64,000 nucleotides of DNA, taken from NCBI GenBank assembly GCA_951406725.2, contig OX597820.1:73904001-73968000 (forward strand). Direction: 5' to 3'. Under the pieces are notes generated by a model. It had not been told where the DNA came from. It saw only the letters and a list, made by a program, of their open reading frames with translations, and searched no databases. A program made the position numbers and the translations under genes. The stretch is from Octopus vulgaris. Taxonomy: Eukaryota. This document shows, piece after piece, positions 4,952 through 57,581 of the stretch (the stretch's first letter is position 1; each line of letters opens with the position of its first letter).

Positions 4952-5368
4952 AAGGCGGCGAGCTGGCAGAAACGTTAGCACGACGGGCGAAATGCTTAAC
5001 GGTATTTCATCTGTCGTTACGTTCCGAGTTCAAATTCCGCCGAGGTCGACTTTGCCTTTCATCCTCTCGGGGTCGATAAATTAAGTACCAGTTACGCACT
5101 GGGGTCGATATAACCGACTTAATCCCTTTGTCTGTCCTTGTTTGTCTCCTCTATGTTTAGCCCCTTGTGGGTAATAAAGAAATAGGTATTTCGTCTGCCG
5201 TTACGTTCTAAGTTCAAATTCCGCCGAGGTCAACTTTGCTTTTCATCCTTTCGGGGTCGATTAAATAAGTACCAGTTACGCACTGGGGTCGATATAATCG
5301 ACTTAATCTGTTTGTCTGTCCTTGTTTGTCCCCTCTGTGTTTAGCCCCTTGTGGGTAGTAAAGAAATA
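4952..5368 (+). mobile_element. SINE family A dimer (second copy starts mid-head at ggtatttcgtctg)
   Basis: Full copy at 4952-5184, second copy at 5185-5368, followed again by agtatttcgtctgc. Confidence 0.88.
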
Positions 5369-7066
5369 AGTATTTCGTCTGCTGCAAGTACCCACCATCC
5401 AGGCCCCCAGACCCACAAGCATTTACAAATCCACTCTTAAGGTAGACATGCTACTTACTTTTGTTGAGAAGAACGGGTAATAAGATGGTAACAACAAGGT
5501 CCTTGAAAGCTTCTCTAAAAGTGGGTTTTGCGAAGTAACAGGATCCTGAAAATGAGACCTAACCGCTACTTTACGCGAACTTTCTAACGATTTTCTTAGT
5601 TTCCAAGAGTGTCATATTCAACAATTGCTCTGTGTAGTTTGTCTGGTTGTTCTGCCAAACTAATTATTAAATGTTTTTCTTTTATGGTACTGAATGTTCT
5701 AATAACAAATGGAAGTTCCTATCACGCTGTTCCACAAAATTTTGATCTCGAAATCCAACCCACGATATTTATTTATATTCTCAAGTTTCTGGGACCACCA
5801 TATTAACGAATAGACAGAGGCTTGTCTTTTTATTGTAGGTTACTATTTCTGGTCAATTGGGTGTTGTCATAAAAACTTTATTGATATTCATATGCAACAT
5901 GGAAATTATATCACTGACATGTTGAAGTGTTTATACCAGTATTTGATTTGTTAAAAAATAGTAAATAAATCTCCCTCAATTCATACCCTGCTGTCATATC
6001 GAAGGGAAGAAAACACCGGAATATTATAGTCTTAGATAAATTGTGGATGAACTAACGAAGGAATGGTCACGGCTTTGAACATAAGTTTGCTGAATCATAA
6101 TTCACTTATGTTCAAGTCTTTAATGCTTTCTGTTTGATAAAATAAAGGGCTGGAGATGAGGGTCGGTGATATCGCCTAAAACTTCGCCTAGAAATTTACT
6201 GGTTTTGAATCAATAAAGAGCAAGGAAAATTGCGTATGCTGTGTTCAAACCAGTACCGAGGAACTGGACGGTGAAAATATCCTCTAAAAGTTTGGTCTTT
6301 TGATGTATAAATATTGACTTCACATTTTTGAACAATGCTTGCAATTTCGGGTGAGGGGGGTATATCGATATCATCCACCCTAGTGCTGAACTGGTACCTA
6401 TTTTATCGACCCCGAAAGGATGAACGACAAAGCTGAACACAACAGGATTTGAACTCAGAACATGAAGACGGATGAAATGCCGCTAAGCATTTTGCCCGAC
6501 GAGGTAACGATTCTACCATAGACAAAGTGTCTGTGAGGCAATGGGCTTTGTGTGTCGTTGTGTTGTGTCTTTATGAATTGGCTGAATAGTCTTGGACAGG
6601 GAAGGATATTTGTGTGTGTAATAGTATCACAGTTCTAGAAATCTGTAATATTCATGAAATTAATTTGTAAAGCAGGCAAAAGACCACAATCTTGTTTTAG
6701 CTGGAAAGGGAATAGGTTAGTAATTGGGGGTATAATCAAATGGTCAATAGAATTAACTGAAATACTTACAAATTGTTTACTTTATTGATATTGAGAAGAA
6801 TGAAAGGCAAGAGCCATCATGGGTCTTTTTGAATTTATAATGTAAAAGGTCTTAAACTAAATACAGAAAATAACGTGTCTGTTGCTCTACTGATGCTGCC
6901 CATCAATTGCTGGTTCCTTAATATTGATTTCTAGCATAACATATAAGATATGAATTTAGAGGGAGAATATATTCTCTTATACCTAAAACGCCGCTGATCC
7001 ACGAACTAACAACACACACAGAGCGAAACTGCTAGGACATTCCGGACATTGACTGAGGATGTTCCG

Positions 7067-35652: not shown

Positions 35653-35861
35653 GTTGTTGTTGTTGTTGTTATTATTATTATTTATTTCATCACTGTACTG
35701 CGGTCATGCTGGAGCACCGCTTTGAATGGTTTAAGGGTTTAGACGATCAAATCAGCCAAAATACTTTTAAAGTGTGACACTTATTCTGACGGTCACTTTT
35801 GACGACCCACTAGATTTCGGGAAAGCAAGCAAACCAACGGTGGCTTTCAAGCACACAAACA

Positions 35862-35894
<33 letters not shown>

Positions 35895-36160
35895 GATGAT
35901 TGTATAATTTATTCTTAATAAATTCCGGTAGATTCGAGATTCTCCCAATGCTATGAATCGAGTGTCTTACAAACACACATTCATTTGAAAGAAGTTGCTC
36001 TCTTATGAAACACACCAGAAACTAGTTTATTCACGTTTGAGTGTGCAGAAGCGTATTTAAAATATCCCTGCAAGGCATCGTTTTGATTTTTGCTTTTCTC
36101 CCTGCATATAACGATTTGTTTGCTGAAGTTATAAGCAAGAGCCATGAACTCATGTAGACT

Positions 36161-36240
36161 CATTAATCCGGAGTGCTCTTGGCTGACGAGACATAAAGAT
36201 GTCGAAACACCTGGTGTCCCGAAGTCTCCTTACGCTAATG
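36161..36240 (+). ncRNA. Canonical extended type I hammerhead ribozyme; predicted cleavage after GUC at 36218
   Basis: catta..ggag-tgctc-ttgg-CTGACGA-GACAT aaag ATGTC-GAAA-CAC ctg GTG-TC-ccga-agt-ctcc..taatg. All core nucleotides are intact, with a G10.1-C11.1 pair and stem I carrying an internal loop. Confidence 0.85.
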
Positions 36241-37283
36241 AAGCGAGAAATTATTCTCCTGTGACGAAATATCAGCGATTAGTAAATTCATATTCGAATC
36301 AATTGGAACATAAGCAGCCATCAAAAATTCTACCCACCTCACCCTACTGCCTAAATACAAAAAGTCAGTATGGTCATGAGTGGAACGTCTTTTCTTAATA
36401 GGTTTGCTAGATCAAAAGTGGCCTGAGGATTAATCAGTAACAACAGCAACAACAATAAATGTTATTCTACAAGCGAAAACAACGGCTTTATGTGGTCGAT
36501 CGATCGGCTAGAAATAACAGTGAAGTCCCCTTCAAATGAGATTTTACAGCTTTTAAGAGAGACAGAGAGAGGAGGGGGACGGATACTTTAGCTTGATTGT
36601 GAACACCTAGTCTTCAACATATGGGATAGTCACAAGTGGAATGGCTTTGATCTTAGATTGACTAAATAACAGCAAGGACAACAACAATGAAAACAATCGT
36701 TATTCTAGAAATAGCACACAAATCTCTCGCAAATCACCATGTTTATTCGACTACAATGCAATCTCGAATACAATGCAACTTATGCCTGTCCTTTTACAGC
36801 TAACAACATGTAACATTTTTTTATCTTCTGGTATAAGGTGACACCGGAGTACAGCCAAGGTTGTTTGTATGTTTAGTGAAATATTGCAGCAATTAAATAC
36901 ACACACAGACACACATACACACAGAGAAAACATATATTTGCACACATACACATACAAAAACCCAACAAACAACCATTAAAACTAGATTGGTGTCTGCTTT
37001 TGCTCAGTAGCATAAAAGCTACTGAGTGAAGAATACAGAAGTTGTTAAAAAGAAAGTCATTCCTCATGAACAAGTTTATTCGTTAAAAACAATTCCAATC
37101 TCGTTCTCTCATTCATCATCCAATTCTCCAAATAACTTGAGAGCCATTTTCCGTCATTAAGCTTTTCATCAGCGCCTTCTTCTTCTTCTTCTTCTTCTTC
37201 TTCTTCTCATATAGGTTTCAAATCTTGACACAAGGCCAGCAAATTCGGGAGAGGGTGCAAGCCGACTACGCTGATCTCATACA

Positions 37284-37583: not shown

Positions 37584-39679
37584 GCATACATATTTACAAA
37601 TATATTTCGAGGGAGAGAGAGAGAGGGGAGAGAGAGAAAGAGAGGGAGAGAAAGAGATAGATTATACAACATAAGTTGTTATATTCCTACCCATCCAATT
37701 CATTACAGATGTCAGTCCTTAAAAGGGTCTTCGAAATCAGAGAATTGAAGTAAAGCATTCCAGGCTACTCAAGAGGCAACAGTTGCAAGGTCAAGCTTTT
37801 TAAGATCATGCCCCCCCCCCACCTCACCCCCGGTCGTTTTCATCCCTTTATCTTCTAATATTCATGATATCCACTGATATTCCTTAAATGATTTGTTCAA
37901 AACAACATCAAGGAACAGAAGAAGACTAGTCAAAACACATGGGTTTATAGTTTGATGAAAGAAGGCATCAGGAAAAACGCTTAGCGGCGTTTCTTCTGGA
38001 TATATACATTTTGAGTTCAAATTCCGCCGAGGTCGACTTTGCGTTTATCCTCTTAGGGTCGACAAAATGAAGTACCGATCGAGAAGAGGGGTCGATGAAA
38101 TCGATTATCTCCTCTGCCAAAATTTCAAACCTTGTGCCTGTAGTTGAAAAAAATTATTATTATTTTTAAAGGAGTAAACTGGCAGCGCGTCGTTAGCGCG
38201 TCGGGCAGAAATGCTTAGCGGCATTTTTTCCGGTTCTTTACGTTTTGAGTTCGAATTCCGCTGAGGTCATCTTTGCCTTTTATCTTTTCGGAGTCAATAA
38301 AATAAAACTAGCTGAGCACTGACTTACACCTTCCCTTCAAAATTGCAGAGGTTGTACTAACAATTTAGAACTATTATAGTTTGATGAAAGGCGGCGAAGA
38401 ATTGGTTTTGTCTTTTGAGTGTTGGATAAAATGCAACTTGGTATTTGTTACTTCAGTTCGAATTCTGCAGAGGCCAACTTTGTCTTTTATCCTTTCAGGG
38501 TCGATAAACAAGTTTCAATTCAGTGAGGAAAGGGGGCGGGGTGGGGTAGACTGACAAAACTGTTAGAGCATCGGGCGAGATATTTTGTGATATCTGCATA
38601 GTATCCTTGCATTCTAATGGCCAAGTTGTATCGGTCTTTCGTTATTAAATTTCTCACCAAAATGCACCCCTTATGAGTTTCAATTAAATTCTAAAATAAT
38701 CATGTATCTAGACTAATTTCACTAAACAACTTTCTTTTATTTATTAATATATTAATGTAATTTTGGAACACAATTGGAGGAAATGTTCTTAATCAATTCT
38801 ATTGCATAACTTTTTATCTCAAAGCGACTCTGATTGCAGGTCAATACAGCAATATATACATAGAAAATGAGTCATCAGCTAATATTCAATTGGGTATGTA
38901 ACAAAAATTCTTAATATAGAAGAATTGTGCACATCACTAGATTATTAGTTGAATTTAATGCACATAAGAACAGGTTAAATAACATGAAATGAAATACCGG
39001 AATTTGTTTTTGAAGAAAACTAGAAAATTAAATACACCAACTAAACAAACTCACACAGATACACGAATACGCAAGAACATATATAATAAAGATTTACAAT
39101 AGACATTAAATGAAAACTTGTTACTCACCTTACAGATAAATTAAAATTACAGGTAGATAAAATGTAAAAACGAAGTAAATGAAAAAAAAATATTTATACG
39201 ATCTAATCATACATATATACAATATTCATACAATATTTCTGTCATGGAAACTTGTAAAACATCCCACTCTACATACTGCAACCTTGCAGAATGCACATTT
39301 GGATGAAGTTTCAACTGGCTGTCCACTGGGAGTTTTTCTTTGTTGATGTAGACATTCACGGCACTACCTTTTGCAACCCTCAATTTTTTTCTAACTTTTT
39401 GAGATCGGCTGAACTCAGAGCGATATCTAACTGGCAGGTTTTGCTTTTCTTTCCTACAGTTACTCTTTTACTCTTTTACTCTTTTACTTGTTTCAGTCAT
39501 TTGACTGCGGCCATGCTGGAGCACCGCCTTTAATCGAGCAACTCGACCCCGGGACTTATTCTTTGTAAGCCCAGTACTTATTCTATCGGTCTCTTTTGCC
39601 GAACCGCTAAGTGACGGGGACGTAAACACACCAGCATCAGTTGTCAAGCAATGCTAGGGGGACAAACACAGACACACAG

Positions 39680-40089: not shown

Positions 40090-43000
40090 TTACCTGGTGC
40101 CAAACATACCCATCTTGTATGCCACGGGCTTCCATCTTTTCACAAACATATCTCGTGACAGACACCTCTTCTCCAGCCTGATTTTGCTACTGAGGTGGTA
40201 ACTGAAAAAGTTAATCAACCCCTGGCCGGAGACAAAGGTGCCTGTCACTATACCTTTCGTACGCGTCTTCCATACTATTTCTTTCAGTATGGCTACTACA
40301 CAGAAAAAACAAGCCTTTCTTTCCCTGTTAAGGAAAGGGGGCGGCACAATCTCGATGATAGACTCAGCTGATAGCTGTACTCTTCCCATCACTGACAACA
40401 GTTGTTCAACAAAAGCTATCAGTCCCGATAACTCCGGACACTCCACGAATGCGTGCAAGACGGTCTCCCTATCCTGCTCACATCGCGGGCATGTCGGCGA
40501 GACGGCACTACCGTGCCTTGACAGCTTGTCGCGAACAGGTAAAGCTGCACGGAAACACTGCCAGGCTAGGGATTTCTGGTAATTATCCAGATACCCCGGC
40601 CCGAACGTCCTCCGGAACAGGTTGACCAACTGATTTTCATCGTAGCCCAGGGTCTCCCCCAAGGCGTCTTCGGACTTAATCTCCACTAACCCGCTATAGA
40701 AATCCGTGGTGGAACTCCTGTTGCCGGCGTTGCCCACCCGAGATAGTAGCTGGAGCGCCTGACGGCACTCCAAATGCCATTCACTCGGTTTAGGTCTCCG
40801 CTTGATCCATGCACCGATGTCCGTTAGGGATGTTAACTGGGGAAGGTAGAACCGGACGTGCGGCGACCACACCTGCTCTCCATCCAGGTAAAGCCAGAGG
40901 TGCCTCAACCTTAACGCGAGTTTTCGCATCCTCAGCCAAGGCATCCCTAGCCCACCCTTTAGCGGTTTCTGGCAGCAGACAGAGCGCTTTACAAGTGGCT
41001 TTCCTCCTTTCTACAAAAATCGGAAAAGGATTCTCTCCAACTTGTTCAGCCACAAATCGGGGCAAGGCACCACGGTCAGACGGTAGGTGATTACTGATGC
41101 TATAAACATCTGCACCACCTCCGCCTTCCCTAGCAGGGATAACGCCCGCCCAGACCAGGTCTGGGTTAGAGCGGTCACCTTGTTGGCCACCTCACTCCAA
41201 TTTTTCTCAATCTGGAGGTCTGGCCCGAACCAGACTCCGAGCAGCTTAACAGGACCTTCCGTCCAACGCCCTACGACGTTATTGGACGGCATCGGCTTGC
41301 CCCTCCAGGTGCCGAGTTGCAAACCGACCGACTTGTCCTTGTTAACCTTTGCTCCTGCCACCACCTCGTAGCTTTTCATGGCCTCTTCCACCACTGGAAG
41401 CTGGCCTTCGTCTGCCACGATGATGGAGGTGTCATCCGCATACTCCGTAGCTCCTCTTCCACACCATAGATCATGCGGCGCGCCCCCTAGTGCCTCCAAC
41501 TTCCGCAGCAAAGGCTCAAGAGCCAATACGTATAGGAGCGAGGACAGGGGACACCCTTGACGAACTGAACGCTCGATCCTGAACGGCTTCGAAAAGGAAC
41601 CGTTCACCTTGACTACAGACTCGATGTCGCTATACAAAGCAGCGATCCAACCTCGAAAGGTCGGGCCTAGGCCAGCCTCTCCGAGGACCGCCGCCAGGTA
41701 CCGATGGTCGACCCTATCAAATGCTTTGGACTGGTCTAAATGTACCAGTGCTCCCCCTGCGCCAGAAAGCTTCCCCACCCTCTCTAAGGAGTAGCGTATA
41801 AGGTGGAGATTATCGTGGATCGTTCTGCCGGGGATAGCGCACGTTTGCGCTTCCCCGACAAGTTTGTCCACGACCCGCGCCAACCTTTTTGCTCGCACCT
41901 TGGCCAGAATCTTTAACTCTGTGTTTAACAGAGTTATGGGCCTGAAGTTCCCTATCTCGTCCCCCTTGTTCGGGTCCTTCCTGATCAACGTCACCGCCTC
42001 CCGGCTCGCAGACTTGGGAATTCTCCCATTCTGCTGCCAGTTGGCGTAGACGCTAGCCAGCAGGTGCCCGAACAAGTCCTGGCATACTTCTATAAAATTC
42101 ATAGGGCAGACCATCGAGACCCGGCGACTTCTCCCCGGGGCACTTGCCCAACACCTCGATTACTTCCTCGGTTGTGATTGGCCCTTCACAGCACTCAGCC
42201 TCTCGTGTCAAGAGGCGCGGGCCACCAGACAGGAAGTCCCTAATGGCCTCACCATGATCCAGCGTCCCGCACCTCCCGGACAACTCGGCGAAGTGCTTGT
42301 GAAGTGCCTCACACATCTCGTCCCGCTTCTTGATCGTGCATCCGTTTTCATCAATAAGAGACCCAATTGTGGCATCGTTTCCACGCTGTGTTTCTATCGT
42401 ACGGGCCCATCCGGCAACATTAATTCCCTCACGGCCCAATGCTCGTACTTTAGCCCGGACTCTACATCCCTCATGTTTGGTTTTGAGGTGACGGTCTAAT
42501 GCCGTTCTCGCCGCTAAAATGTGAGATGCAGAGCCCAACCTCAACGCCTCCTCTAAGTTCTTAACTAGTTGCCCTTCTATTCTAGCCCTATCTAGTCTTA
42601 GTTGTTTACTAAATCTAATGGACTCGAATCGAATGGCTCTTTTGAGGGTGAACCACTACCGGTTATTAACCACGGCTCCGGTTAACGCCCTCTGCACTAA
42701 CACCTTAATCCGGCTACGGTATGCCTCGCGTGTCAAAATAGACTTGTTCAACTTCCAGTAGCCGGTTCCTATCTTAAGTGTGCTATCTATGTCCAGTCTA
42801 CACGTGACCATTCTATGGTCAGTATAGGGCACCTGGACGAGCTGTGGACAACTAAAACTAGACTTATCTCTAGTTCTTATCACTATCCTGTCTAGATAAG
42901 ACTTGAACCTTCCGTCGCCACTCATCCAGGTCCACTCTGGGACGTTCGGATGGTCAAGTCTGTAACGATCTGCTAGCTGAAACTGCTTAAGCAGATCCAC

Positions 43001-43492
43001 GAGACGTGAGTTCACTTTCCTATAGATCGAGCCAACGCTATCGATGTGTACGTCAACGATAGCATTAAAGTCCCCTAATATCACTAAAGTCTTCGACGTC
43101 ACGAGAAAGCCCTCTAGGCGCCGATAAAAATCAGTTTGGAAATCTCTAGCACAAGGTGCATAGAGTCCGATCAACCTGAAGGCCTTACTGCTGTATGTCA
43201 CATCAAGGACGACCAGCCCACCTTCTGGGTCTACATAGACTATACTTGTCTGTAGAGCCAAGTCTTTACGGATCAGTACCACTACGCCCCCTCGCCCTCC
43301 GGTCTGGCCAGGAGACATGATTTTCTCGTAGCCATTCAGGAGAGGCGAGAAGGTTTGTAGGCTGTCCAGCTTGGTCTCTGTAGCAACCATCACATATATA
43401 TCATGTGATCTGAGGTCGTCGAGGAAACAAGCCTGCTTCCACTTCGAACTCAGACCACGCACATTTAAACAACCAAGGTTAAGCGAAGCCAT
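40090..43492 (-). pseudogene. LINE ORF2: APE endonuclease, reverse transcriptase and zf-RVT (two premature stops, one frameshift)
   Basis: LNVRGL, ETKL, GDFN, YLDRI, TDH (APE); FRPITLLN, DQSKAFDRV, RQGCPLS, YADD (RT); CPRC..ETVLHAFVEC. TAG stops at 42656 and 41011 are in frame with the downstream ORFs; frameshift at ~42085. Confidence 0.93.
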
Positions 43493-43509
43493 TACAAAAA
43501 GTAAAAGTT

Positions 43510-44935
43510 CTACTTACATTTCGTTGGAGAGGTGGGGGCCGACCTCACCACACGTTTGTGGGCCCCTTCTTTCTCCTCTTTCTTCAGATAGTCCGGCAAG
43601 TTCGCGATATGCCGGATGGCGTTTGGGTGTCTGTCTTTTAATTGTTTGAACGTTGTTTCCGCAATCCACGCGTGTCTATTTCGATCTTTGTATTTGTTGT
43701 ACAGTTTTGCTGACTGATGCTGAACCACAATATCGTTTATGTATTTGTCTTGTGTGTCGAATTCAATTAATATGAGTTCATTTTCTTTTTTGTCTTCTTT
43801 TTCTGGGCCAGTTGAGCGGGATTTTTTTTCCGTGTCTGTGGTGTGTCTTTGTTTTTATTATTTTTTGTAGGGGATGTGGACGGGGATGCTGCACGAATTC
43901 TTTTACGAACTGGTGTAAATCCCACCTCTGATACCTTCATGGTATCGTCTGGGGTAGCAATTGTTTGTTCGGTAGGCGCCGCAGTTTTTAGGGGGTGGGA
44001 GGTTTTAATAGTGTAGGGGTTTGTGAGTGCGAGGGCTGGGTTTTTTCTTCAGTCTGTTTTGGGGTTGGCACCGTAACAGCAGGAGTGGGATTTTTTGTTT
44101 TTGTAGGGGTAGGTGCGTTTGCAAGGGTAGGGACTTTTTTATTATCTGAGGGGCCTGGTGTCTGCGGTTTCTTTTGCTTGTCTGGACAGTCTACACGAAT
44201 GTGGACCTTTTTGCCGCAGGCGTAACAGGTGGGTTTTCGGCCTTCGACCTGTACCCTGAGGGCTACGTTCTCGCCCACGAGCACCCTCTCAGGAAGGAGC
44301 TGCAGGTCCTCCGCTGTTCCTTGAATTAATATATTAATGTTACGCCCGAGCCAAAATCGAGGGGTAGAGCATGTTACTTCTAGTATTTTTATTTTGTCCG
44401 CCCTTTTATATAACAGGGCGGTCACTACCTCTACCGGATCTACTTCCGGCGGGGCTTCTACAATTCTGACCCGGGACGTCCTGCGTCCCCTATAGCTTGG
44501 GAAAAGTACCACCTCCTTGGTTTTTAGGGGGTTCACAGAATGCCCGCGGGCCATTTCTTCCCCCGAGAAGCGGACATCCACAGTGCCATATGCCCGTCCC
44601 CTGGCGACGTACACGATGTCCTTCCAAATCGGGGATAGGCATTTCTCGATGGTGCTTTTTTCAAAGTGTTTGAACCTTCTGCTTTGTGGACAGAAAGTTT
44701 TAAACACTACGGTCCGCTTCTCGGTCTCCACGATACTGGCGGAGGGTGATATTTTAACATCACCACCCTCCTCTTGCATTCTTTTAAATAGCTCGACGAG
44801 CTGGTTGACATCGAAGTCAATGTTCTCGGTAGCCACTGCGGCTACCGCAGAACATTTTTTAACATTGCTCTCCTCAAGAGCACTACTTTCGTGAATAATT
44901 TCAACAGACATTATTCTGTTGAAATTAGACAACAC
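43510..44935 (-). pseudogene. LINE ORF1, gag-like protein with CCHC knuckle (disrupted)
   Basis: 315-aa ORF with CYACGKKVHIRVDC and a Pro/Thr-rich tail; apparent continuation to 43510 in another frame. Confidence 0.75.
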
Positions 44936-47326
44936 AAAAATTACGAGTATTGGTTTCCCACAAAACTGGGAAACCTATAGAAAGTTTTTCTTCCAAAGTA
45001 GTTCAAAAAGCAGTTCAAAAATTCCAATTCCCACCCCCATTCGGGGGAGGGGCACGAAAATAGTCTGGCAGGACTATATATAGTCACGTAAATAAAAAGC
45101 CACAGTGGCTAACAGTTCAACGGTAAGAAATTATTCAATTATTTCCCGGTAAAACCGGAGAACAAGACAGTTCAGCAACGTTTAAAGGCAAATTTTCAGT
45201 AGTAGGAATTCAACAATTAACAACACAGCAAAACTCTTACCGGGAAGAAAACGCGTCCAAACCGTAGTACGGTAGGCAAAGTCACTCTTCTGTCAGTGAG
45301 GTTAGCAAGCTACTTACCACACAGCCACTCCTGCGCCAGTTATTTTTTTTTTTGTAGGAATAATCTGCCCTCAATTGCGTTACTACATCTGCTTGGAACT
45401 GCAGATGGTCGCACCGCTTTCGAGCCCCTCCTGGTTTGGTATATAATATAAACGCATTTACATCCCTCATGTTTACTATATACCAAATCAGGTATCGCCA
45501 CCATATACTATCCTGTCTACCAACCAGATGATAGCACATCATTTGGTTCAGCCGATCTGCACTGCCCATGTACCTGTTATAATCGAGGTTCACAAACAAG
45601 GTGCACCGGTAGATAGAAAATAGATCTGCCTCTTATCTCTGTATGCGATCGCTAGCAGATTTCCTTTCTGCCGTTGGATTATTTTCTTTTTTGAAATTTT
45701 GCTTTATTTTTAAATATCCAACGGCAGCCCTTTTCTACTAGCAATTACTCTTTTCTACTCTAGGCACAAGGCCTGAAATTTTTGGGGAGGGGGCCAGTCG
45801 ATTAGATCGACCCAGTAGCTAACTGGTAGTTAATTTATCGACCCCGAAAGGATGAAAGGCAAAATCGACCTTAGTGGAATTTGAACGCAGAACGTAATGC
45901 CAGACGAAATAACTTATTTCTTTACTACCACTCTGCCAGCTCGCCGCCAGCTTCTAAATCCGCTGCAAGTTTGACCGAACTAAAAAATCGGTAAAAGAAA
46001 TATTATAAAATCCTGGTTATGGTATGGAAGTAATAAATTCCAGACCACATCGTACCCTAGGCCCTTCTGACGAACATTATTGTCTCTTTTCCCAGTATAA
46101 AAAATAAACCCACAGAAATTCCCAGTATTTGCTTCGAAAATTTTCCAAACTTTGATCCCCCACGTTCGTGGGCTTTCCTGGCATATATTGTCGGAAGTGT
46201 ACCCTTCTTTTATACCTCACTATGTCCTCATCGACGGATACATATCAGGGTTATAGAGTGTTTTATATGCGTTCTGGATGCAGTCGAAGAGGGGTCTTAC
46301 TTTAAAGAAGAGATCAAAGTTTGGTTCTCCACATACTGGGGTACTGTTTGTGTCTCTCACATGTAAATACTGGTTCAGTTTCACAAATCGTGTCCTTGAC
46401 ATAATACTGGAAACGTACGATCGCCAAAAGATTCCTGATTATTCCAAGTAATTTGTAATTCTGGGTAATTGTTTTATACCCATAATAACATTTATGGCAA
46501 AAAAAAAATGCCCGTATTTCTTATGGCAAAAAATGCCCGCATTTTTTTCCAGTTAGTTTACATTCTGCATAGCGGTTTATTTTCGCATTGATGGCTTCAA
46601 ACAAGCTTACTTGAAAAACAAGAAAAAAGGCTTAACGGTTTCGCTTTCTGAGAAAGACTATGTATAGATCCTGTCTCAGAAAAATTGTTAATAAAAATAT
46701 TTTAAAACTTTTTACTCCATTCAGGTGTAAAATCGTCCTCAATGTCACTATTGCTGCTTTTAGTTTTTTCAGAATCGCTGCTTTCAGTTTCGGACACAGA
46801 AATATCCGATTCATTTTCATACACCACGTGCTTTTGTAGTTCACTCATACTTTTGCTCGATTTCTCAATATCTTCCGTTAAAAAGCCCTCAAATTCAGAA
46901 TCACTGCTTGATAGCATGAAACTCCTATCCATTTTAAAAGTTGAAGAAAATCGTCGAAGAAAAAATGTGAAAAAAATCTCTCAAAATTCACAGAGTTCAG
47001 ACATCACGCCAAACAATGTCGGATGCTATTACTCGATTATTTACAAAGTGAAGTCACGCATTTTCACGAATGCACTAACGAGATTTGTGTTGAAATTCAC
47101 ATTTAAATAACAATGGGTTCTCTCGGCTGGGTTGGTCGGTTGAACCAAAAAACTTTTCAGCCGGCTGCGGCCGGGTTGGTATCCAAAGGGTTAAGATAAA
47201 CCTTTCCTTTTCACAATACAGCTGGAATGTAGACTGAAGACATGCTTAGGCAACAACCAGTCTTCCATCCGCTCCAAAAAAAAAAAAAAAGGACAACAAA
47301 CCATTCCTTAAGTCTGTACCTACAGA

Positions 47327-54039: not shown

Positions 54040-56472
54040 ATATTTAATTGAAAGTTAATCATCAATGTACTTTCCCTGATTATCTATGACTTGCTTCCAT
54101 CTCTTTACAAGCTTTTTAATCCCATCAATGTAAAACTCTTTTGGTTTCAAAGCGAAGAACTCGTAAATGTCAGGTTCGACCTCCTCCTGGCTTGCGAAAG
54201 TTGTGTCCCCCAAATAATTCTGTAAACTATTAAAGAAATGGTAGTCTGAAGGAGCAAGGTCGGGAGAATAAGGTGGATGAAGAAATTTTTCCCAATCGAC
54301 CTCTTCGATCTTCTGTGATGTGATCTTTGCAGTGTAGGGTTGCGCATTGTCCTGATGAAGCGTCACTCGTTTTCGACTCACTAAAGCGGCCCTTTTTTCT
54401 TTCAAACCTTGGTTCAAACGCTCTAATTGCTGACAGTAGACTTGAGCATTGATTGTTGCATTAGGTGGTAACAATATAAAGTGAATTACGCCTTTGCAAT
54501 CGCACCAGATAGAGAGAATAACCTTTTCCTCATGAAGCTCCCTTCTCAGTTGTGGTTGAGCATTTTCTTTTTTACCAAGCCACTGTTTACGATGTTTTAC
54601 ATTTCGATAGAAAATCCATTTTTCGTCACAAGTCTATCGAAAATGGATGAAATGAGTTTGCGAGAATGGAGAGAAGAGCAGATGCCAACTCGGGATTTGC
54701 GGTTGCTATCGGACAATACATAAGGCACCTATTTTCCAAGTTTAGGAATCTTTCCACGTTGTTGAAGATGACGATGAACAGTTGTATGGTTTGAAGTAAG
54801 CTTTATTGCCAATTCTTCAACTGATAATGACGGATTTTCTTCAAGTAATGCCTCAAGGAACTTATCATCAAACTCAACTGGACGTCCTTTTCGATATTCA
54901 TCTTCAATTTTGAAAACGATCTCCTGCAAGTTCTATCATTCAAGCACTTTCCCATAAAATGAGTATGTTTCGAGTCACTTCGGCTGCAGCGTAACCTTTA
55001 TTGTACTCATAAAGAATCATATGTGCCTTAAATGCTCCTTGGATACTTCCATGTTAAAAGGGTTTTAATCAAAGCAATTTTAGGGTGTCCACGAAGTCTG
55101 GGTACATGAAATAAAATCATAACATAAACAAATAAATATAAGAAATAATAAATTTCCTTTTTTACTTTTATTTAAATTAAATAAAAAAAACTTTACTTTT
55201 CTAAATTTTTTTGTTATTTTTTCTACAGATGATCGAATGATAGCTCTGTCTAAAGAAGAAAGAATCGAGTTGGTATTATTAAGTAGACGAGATGGATGGT
55301 CTTACGCAAAATTGCGGAAGAATTTAATCTTCGACACCCTTATAGGCAACCTATTTATTTTACTGCCGTCGGGAAATTGATCAAGAAATTTAAAGAAACA
55401 GGCAGTGTTTTGGATAAACCCCGTTCCGGGCGACCAAAGACTTCAGATGAAACGAAAGAGGCTGTCATGGCTAAAGTTTCTGCTAGCCCAAAGAAATCAC
55501 TTCGTCGGACATCCACGGTGTTAGGTGATCCAAATCCAACCATCCACAAAATGCTGGTTGAGGAAAAGTTTCATCGATACAACCTACAGATATTGCATCA
55601 CTTAAATGAAGACGACCCTGATAGACGAATGTAGACGTGCGAATGGCTCTCAGATAAAAAGGATGAAATATCAATTTTACGAAAAACTTTGTGGTCAACT
55701 GATAGAATCTTCTATACTGGTCTCGAGGTAATCCACATTGGATGGATCTATCCAAACAAGCAAGGCAGCAAAAAGGTGATAGTGTGGTGTGGTTTGTGGA
55801 AAGCTCTTGTTCTAGGACCCTTCTTCATTGAACATGTAACGGATGAGACTTATGTAAACATATTGAAAGACAAATTATATCTCAAATTGAGCGCCTAGGC
55901 AAGAGCCTTCCGAATTGGTTTCAGCAGGGTGGGGCCCCTACCCATTTTGCCACAACTGTTAAAGATTGGCTTCATGACACTTTTCCTCACTGGATTGAAA
56001 GAAGGGCTCATATGGAAAGGTCCCCTCGTTCACCAGACCTTTCTCCCCTTGATTTCTTTTTCTGGGGTATGTTGAAAGAGAAAGATTACAGATTTAAAAC
56101 ACATGAGAGAACGCATTACCAGTCAGTGTGCTGAAATTGATGGCAATGTAGACTTATTTAATCAAGTTCACCTGAATTTAGCAAGGCGCATCAAGTTATG
56201 CATTGAAAAATGATGGAAATCACTTTGAAAATATTATTTATTAGTATTATAATTAAATAAAATTGTTTTGTTTTAAAAGTATGTGTTAATCTCCATGTAC
56301 GCAGACTTTGTGGACACCGTCTATTATTTTGTAAAACAATATTTAATTAGTTTAAACGTACACAAATGCATAATAATAATTTTTAATTGAATTAGACATT
56401 TGAAAATACTATTAAATTTCATTCAAATCTAAAAAAAAGGTAAAATTGGACAGAACTGATTGGATGACTTGA
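54040..56472 (-). mobile_element. Decayed mariner (DD34D-type) transposon interrupted by a nested element
   Basis: HQDNAQP and HPPYSPDLAPSDYHFF motifs (ORF 54055..54474), HTH region 54729..55050, and a 5' TIR-like end near 56445-56472. Confidence 0.85.
55083..56320 (+). mobile_element. Tc1/mariner-superfamily element, rosa/DD41D-like (spacing counted as 40), decayed
   Basis: TIRs ggtgtccac.aagtctg.gtacatg at both ends. KFKETGSV.D.PRSGRP and FQQ(G)GAPTH...SPRSPDLSPLDFFFWG. Confidence 0.85.
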
Positions 56473-57237: not shown

Positions 57238-57581
57238 GCCGTAGCGTCGACTGTGGGCTGGTAGCTGTGTACAGTCGCCCCAATGGCGTCCAGAGCGAGC
57301 TCTGGTCGCCGTAGCGTCGACCGTGGGCTGGTAGCTGTGTACAGTCGCCCCAATGGCGCCAAGAGCGAGCTCTGGTCGCCGTAGCGTCGACCGTGGGCTG
57401 GTAGTTGTGTACAGTCGCCCCAATGGCGCCAAGAGCGAGCTCTGGTCGCCGTAGCGTCGACCGTGGGCTGGTAGCTGTGTACAGTCACCCCAATGGCGCC
57501 CAGAGCGAGCTCTGGTCGCCATAGCGTCGACCGTGGGCTGGTAGATGTGTACAATCGCCCCAATGGCGCCCAGAGCGAGCT
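57238..57581. repeat. GC-rich 70-bp tandem minisatellite, ~4.9 units, preceded by (GAACC)n
   Basis: Units start at 57238, 57308, 57378, 57448 and 57518 with few substitutions. Confidence 0.95.

Follow-up and report, generated by a model that had tools for sequence, protein, structure and literature searches.

The window analysed here, a stretch of 64,000 nucleotides of Octopus vulgaris DNA, carries at 35895–36312 a repeat element with two deletions and a single hammerhead ribozyme. The element is composed of a short inverted arm and a longer main arm, and its parts are listed below. Positions on the repeat unit of its family are written as u, with the cut site of the ribozyme at u156.

35895..35937, minus strand: inverted 5' arm (u264–u306), which ends at the short 3'-end site of the family; a Penelope-type inverted junction
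35937..36312, plus strand: main arm of about 1.4 units, from u156 to u282 of the next unit (nhmmer and alignment)
35937..36113, plus strand: partial first unit, circularly permuted, starting at about the cut-site position u156 (alignment)
36113..36114, plus strand: 42-nt deletion relative to the family (u8–u49; alignment to the family majority)
36161..36182, plus strand: 5' strand of the extended stem I (letters and alignment)
36183..36218, plus strand: type I hammerhead core with stems II and III; predicted cut 3' of C36218
36219..36240, plus strand: 3' strand of the extended stem I (letters and alignment)
36244..36245, plus strand: 31-nt deletion relative to the family (u182–u212; alignment to the family majority)

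The motif at 36161–36240 has the conserved core, the three stems and the open stem I of the type I topology. The CUGACGA box lies at 36183–36189, GAA at 36204–36206 and C17 at 36218. Stem II (36190–36194/36199–36203) is closed by a G–C pair and carries an AAAG loop, and stem III (36207–36210/36214–36217) has a loop of 3 nt, the region 36207–36217 being near-palindromic. The first-pass annotation had read the core (CUGACGA/GAAA/GUC) and stems II and III at these positions, where the Rfam Hammerhead_1 model aligns throughout, and the strands that it had assigned to stem I (ttgg/ccga, ggag/ctcc and catta/taatg) are indeed complementary. Its description of the motif as a canonical hammerhead, when checked in an Rfam search of the 851 nt around the motif, holds for the type I alignment to RF00163 (Hammerhead_1), which covers 45 of 45 model positions with an invariant core (E = 1.6e-5), but not for the score, which at 30.9 bits falls under the gathering score of 34 bits. 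In an Rfam search of the whole window, the motif was absent among the 150 of 220 matches listed, which are dominated by microsatellite matches to miRNA models. A descriptor scan returned one match in the 64-kb window against one match over 300 Markov-simulated 64-kb controls, and the motif therefore exceeds chance expectation. Judged by its sequence, 36161–36240 is a genuine type I hammerhead, and the same evidence supports the predicted cut after C36218. Minimal motifs had been said to lie nearby, whereas one convincing minimal hammerhead-like motif was found elsewhere in the window, running downward from 48582 on the minus strand, with a 7-bp stem I, a 5-bp stem II that carries a long loop, and a weak stem III.

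The ribozyme had been placed in apparently unique sequence, with no second copy and no transposable-element context. This placement has to be abandoned, the element belonging to a dispersed repeat family that numbers hundreds of copies. In a DNA search of the genome (2.8 Gb, 227 contigs), for which 40 of 128 candidates were scored, 41 matches other than the locus itself were found at 70–85% identity. Furthermore, a 25-position core pattern, built from the window copy itself, gave 1 exact match in the 2.8 Gb, 29 matches with one mismatch and 229 with at most three; the control for this search gave 1 match. A decay model yielded 376–1257 copies over the grid tried, with the best fit at about 580–920, and the family total is estimated at about 600–900 copies. 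The model predicts 2–12 exact core matches by chance, with 1 seen, and a single intact core therefore needs no selection.

The unit is 333 nt in length with 39.6% GC and is ORF-less, no Pfam match having been found in the frames over the element; for such a multicopy unit, the retrozyme class named at first pass is appropriate. The qualifier 'young' is not: the window copy is 81% identical to the family majority and carries two deletions. No near-identical paralogue of it was found among the scored candidates, and there is thus no sign of recent activity. The median identity to the majority is 82% (54 copies) and 81% (55 copies), and the family is therefore old, its copies being about 18% diverged. 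The units are circularly permuted among copies, the segment at 35937–36113 being upstream of the ribozyme here and downstream elsewhere. Partial tandems are common, with 32 of 109 segments longer than one unit; arrays of at least three units were seen at none of the examined loci, and two same-strand cores were present in 3 of 81 and 2 of 60 loci. Before counting, 4 of the 109 segments, 5 of 60 loci with failed anchoring and 5 duplicate loci were left out, and loci L036 and L055 were dropped from the alignment of 30 pattern loci. A genome-wide search with RF00163 scored 73 candidates and missed the window locus, and so is not a census. Of two further loci, L064 belongs to the family but has a variant stem II and loop, and L065 is a minimal hammerhead with a similar stem II and other flanks.

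The main arm of the window copy was recovered by nhmmer at E = 1.4e-81 (35935–36312), with 291 of 360 ungapped columns equal to the family majority, and ends about 25 nt before the first 3'-end site. The inverted arm agrees with the majority in 35 of 44 columns and scores 52 (nhmmer E = 7e-4), whereas the best score among 500 shuffles and among 488 window controls was 28. A local repeat search of 30–42 kb of the window gave nothing useful on the element. Active retrozymes are recognized by two complete ribozymes in tandem (Li et al., 10.64898/2026.07.22.740005), and one is present at the window locus; with one ribozyme and two deletions, the copy cannot release a monomer or a circle. The reading preferred here, with a probability of about 0.8, is that the window copy is a dead and decayed member of an old, non-autonomous family of hammerhead repeats, namely animal non-LTR retrozymes with a proposed Penelope life cycle. 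Most likely, it does nothing for the host.

Cleavage of the window copy as a monomer is plausible, although the predicted folding is less clean than the first-pass description suggests. The hammerhead fold lies 1.2–1.5 kcal/mol above the minimum-energy fold and is predicted to account for 1.4–2.6% of the ensemble, and the folding z-score of the motif is −0.62. The internal loop proposed within stem I (tgctc/agt) is not confirmed, as it is predicted to be mostly paired, with two single-base bulges remaining; the outermost catta/taatg helix is absent from the hammerhead-constrained minimum-energy fold. The models used do not include tertiary contacts, and cleavage therefore stays plausible; if the plus strand is transcribed, the RNA may be cut after 36218. 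The 5-bp stem II with a 4-nt loop, as described at first pass, is present in the window copy but departs from the family norm of a 4-bp stem and a 6-nt loop. In 36 of 54 copies, this 6-nt loop has C at its first and A at its last position, as does the Rfam Hammerhead_1 consensus, whereas the window copy has U at the first position of loop II. A change at 36194 adds the fifth stem II pair and can shorten the loop to 4 nt; any tertiary contact of loop II with a stem I bulge would thus involve a 4-nt loop and a stem I loop predicted to be mostly paired. The core and stems II and III are intact in 6 of the 54 sampled copies, among which only the window copy is predicted to fold near the hammerhead, partly because of the change at 36194.

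At the level of the family, a 63-nt fragment of the majority sequence is predicted to fold away from the hammerhead, which has a share of 0.0002. Folded as a circle, the majority sequence is predicted to be 64% paired (z = −6.8 against 60 shuffles). No covariation beyond that of shuffles was found in 28 copies (the score was equalled by 50 of 500 shuffles), and the high pairing of stems II and III in the aligned copies is built in by the search pattern.

By structural criteria other than long arrays, the family, described here from genomic DNA, belongs to the animal non-LTR retrozymes as a new member. These repeats were defined by Cervera and de la Pena (2020; PMC7229834), who named Penelope elements as a strong candidate for the mobilizer, and Li et al. 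(10.64898/2026.07.22.740005) have backed the link with co-occurrence and pLTR homology, drawing on vertebrates, insects and a coral. The retrozymes described in coral, mussel and axolotl (PMC7229834) share with the present family the type I hammerhead, an ORF-less low-GC unit (150–450 bp), a highly self-paired predicted circle and the co-existence of Penelope elements. However, the copies here are mostly dispersed and of 0.3–2 units, no long arrays of the kind typical of retrozymes were seen and the family is old. In addition, the two internal 3' ends and the inverted 5' arms found here are not described in the main text of that study (PMC7229834). The words 'tail' and 'octopus' are likewise absent from its main text and from that of Li et al. 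(10.64898/2026.07.22.740005). No published account was found of the family or of such an end signature in retrozymes; repeat libraries, subscription papers and supplements may hold either. The single type I hammerhead is ordinary, such motifs in short repeats being widespread among animals, and 235 Rfam hammerhead matches have been reported in a squid genome (PMC6962438).

The main value of the locus lies in the end signature of its family, not in the single ribozyme. Ends were mapped on the unit for 109 segments from 82 loci, 105 of which were used for the end counts. The 5' ends are spread evenly round the unit (chi-square p = 0.70, 105 segments). The 3' ends form two clusters, with medians at u305 and, 43 nt further on, at u15 of the next unit; 71 of 105 lie inside the intervals u293–320 and u8–27. 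These intervals were picked after the first data set had been viewed; in a replication using 60 further loci outside the profile (55 anchored), 33 of 55 3' ends fell into the identical intervals, against 14% expected if the ends were uniform, a crude null given that the copies were selected for holding the core or tail region. In the first set, 19 of 91 segments (from 16 loci) have an inverted arm against their 5' junction, as do 9 of 55 in the second; no segment of either set (0 of 91, 0 of 55) has one at its 3' end. Among 12 head-to-head pairs, both ends could be classed in 6, five of which combine one short and one long end; the second set held 9 pairs, and all 3 that were classed are of the short and long type. 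The 10 nt after the clustered 3' ends are 75% AT, against a background of 64%, and 31 of the 109 segments cross both end sites into the next unit.

Penelope insertions have been described as 5'-truncated partial tandems, often with an inverted 5' copy, that carry a tail of 30–40 bp at one end (Craig et al., PMC8557442). The tail has been attributed to two internal start sites of reverse transcription downstream of the hammerhead, used after nicking of AT-rich DNA (Frangieh et al., PMC11167929). The family resembles Penelope-like elements and their pLTRs, as presented in these accounts (PMC8557442, PMC11167929), in its two 3'-end sites past the cut, one-sided tail, 5' truncation, inverted 5' copy and AT-rich targets. 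The distances differ: the tail is about 43 nt here against the 30–40 reported for Penelope (PMC8557442), and the 3' ends lie 150 and 192 nt past the cut, against about 85–92 nt for the start region of one anole Poseidon element (PMC11167929). Furthermore, unlike the pLTRs, the repeat has no ORF, and its hammerhead is not minimal but has a full stem III and an extended stem I. The two 3' sites and the one-sided inverted arms support mobilization by Penelope from an uncut or circular template, and the involvement of Penelope in spreading the family is considered highly probable from these ends. The mobilizer of animal retrozymes has so far been argued from co-occurrence and pLTR homology; the end signature described here was obtained in two separate samples.

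In the proposed mechanism, tandem copies would be transcribed, and the hammerhead would cut the multimers into monomers, which would be open to ligation into self-paired circles. AT-rich DNA would then be nicked by a Penelope-like RT/GIY-YIG protein, and reverse transcription would begin inside the RNA at one or other of two points that lie some 150 and 192 nt beyond the cut. The RT would copy 0.3–2 units through the ribozyme before a random stop, and a second, inverted arm would often be made from the other start site. The window insertion predates the split of five related organisms, and on this reading its catalytic core was kept by chance.

Copies starting at the cut site, which would indicate a cleaved linear monomer as the template, were also sought and the idea was rejected: 6 of 105 5' ends lie near u156, where about 5 are expected, and the start of the window copy near u156 may be due to chance. 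Since the 5' ends are not piled up at u156 and copies cross the cut site, a cleaved linear monomer was not the template, and we infer an uncut multimer or a ligated circle. The more specific reading, in which a Penelope RT began internally on re-ligated circular RNA and rolled past the ribozyme, with the family ends as the record, is held tentatively, at somewhat under even odds. The well-paired predicted circle and the fragment that folds away from the hammerhead suit a circle without proving one, and a linear multimer and a circle are indistinguishable from DNA. If true, this reading would show by what route a circular RNA, which has no free 3' end, can pass into DNA, and it would provide direct structural evidence for the mobilizer of animal retrozymes. 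The family ends predict where a Penelope RT should start on the RNA, and any retrozyme family can be tested cheaply by mapping its insertion ends on the unit in the same way.

The genome carries GIY-YIG elements with open frames of 781 aa. The unit profile matched none of 30 GIY-YIG loci (of 148; best E = 2.9) as an autonomous partner, the 30-locus sample being dominated by a single young family, and no RT and GIY-YIG ORF joined to the repeat was found in the Pfam scan of the window or in 55 upstream flanks. Among the GIY-YIG loci, a young Penelope-like family (L103, L108 and others) has many intact 781-aa open frames; its 3' region contains tandem motif repeats, and CUGANGA is missing in most of the copies examined.

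An alternative in which Penelope is retained and the ribozyme has a minor part in copying is that the unit represents the pLTR of an autonomous Penelope element now extinct, or else a derivative, linear and non-autonomous, that spread in the form of uncut tandem transcripts. Every end signature is of the Penelope type, as this alternative would have it, and the predicted departure of the majority sequence from the hammerhead fold agrees with it. An anole Penelope element accepted uncleaved RNA in vitro, its hammerhead being dispensable for insertion (PMC11167929), and animal retrozymes have been derived from pLTRs by Li et al. (10.64898/2026.07.22.740005). However, the copies carry the end of their own unit upstream of the ribozyme, with no ORF sequence, and among the 55 upstream flanks there were two pairs with common adjacent sequence, both of them inverted unit arms. 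A solo pLTR of an autonomous element is unlikely because the upstream flanks consist of unit end, with no common ORF sequence. Moreover, in its size, GC content, full stem III and self-paired circular fold the unit resembles a retrozyme circle, and this alternative is regarded as improbable beside the preferred reading of a non-autonomous retrozyme family.

The suggestion at first pass of a domesticated, host-conserved ribozyme has to be judged at the window locus itself. The window copy alone would then be under selection, for example in a host intron or UTR, as are the intronic and UTR hammerheads of amniotes (PMC7761336, PMC7229834), which have the same type I topology and a single intact motif per locus. 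The amniote motifs are described as few-copy and deeply conserved, whereas the window copy comes from a family of hundreds with neutral-looking change in its readable part. The window copy is the sole exact match to the core pattern in 2.8 Gb and the best-folding of the six intact-core copies among 54; against this, the pattern was derived from that very copy, and the number of exact matches lies below the chance range of the decay model.

The insertion is present in four other related organisms. The most distant orthologue (organism E) differs at 60 positions over 645 nt. It shows no gap at 36113/36114 in the comparison, so that the 42-nt deletion is common to both; the u182–u212 segment is present in a paralogous contig and absent in the orthologue of organism E. 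With both deletions in this orthologue, the insertion and its decay therefore predate that split. At 36159–36178, which takes in the visible part of the 5' arm of stem I, 3 of 20 nt differ in organism E (36164, 36168 and 36170), and two of the three differences break stated pairs unless the other strand compensates. The flanks, in paralogue-free bins, differ at 24 of 198 nt (12.1%). The remaining stretch differs at 36 of 447 (8.1% versus 12.1%, Fisher p = 0.11), which fits either a conserved or a neutral core. No difference at 36171–36252 is among the 40 entries listed for the orthologue, but this blank is uninformative, as paralogous contigs pile up there and only the listed differences are covered. 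Among the 118 window ORFs of at least 75 aa, a set in which shorter exons are missed, no host-gene domain was found with Pfam; the matches are to transposon domains, together with two sub-threshold DUF matches. Domestication is thus unsupported: copies number in the hundreds, chance alone would leave an intact core among them, and differences in the visible arm of stem I are about as frequent as in the flanks. We regard it as very improbable compared with the dead retrozyme copy preferred here.

Mobilization by LINEs (SINE-like, with priming from a free 3' end) or satellite spread by recombination is scarcely credible, for although the window does hold an APE-RT element at 40093–44974 and 5' truncation and inversion occur with LINEs too, the 3' ends fall inside the unit, at two positions distant from the cut site and with no common poly(A) tail, and the copies are dispersed with polar ends and not in arrays.

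Other repeats were recorded in the window. The LINE at 40093–44974 (minus strand) is near full length, with an ORF1-like frame, endonuclease, RT and zf-RVT, and is split by stops or frameshifts. Remnants of DNA transposons lie at 54058–54633 (minus), 55287–55631 (plus) and 45983–46216 (minus), with matches to mariner-type DDE, HTH_32 and DDE_Tnp_1_7 domains. Short dispersed repeats of SINE-like appearance occur at 5001–5382, 35683–35880 and 37975–38508, the second of which adjoins the ribozyme element on its left, and a GC-rich minisatellite at 57238–57581 comprises 4.9 copies of 70 nt with a 95% match. Elsewhere in the genome, a second dispersed hammerhead family (L062, L063 and L066; G000 C7:15930010, C1:98507175 and C15:53489332) is characterized by a long stem II, with Rfam matches of 108 nt that score 34–36 bits; its stem III is short and palindromic, as in the dimer-type hammerheads of Penelope pLTRs. 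Finally, a hammerhead near the Rfam consensus and outside the family of the window copy (L061; G000 C5:6546758–6546804, minus strand) has, at 45.5 bits, the best Hammerhead_1 score among the 73 scored candidates.
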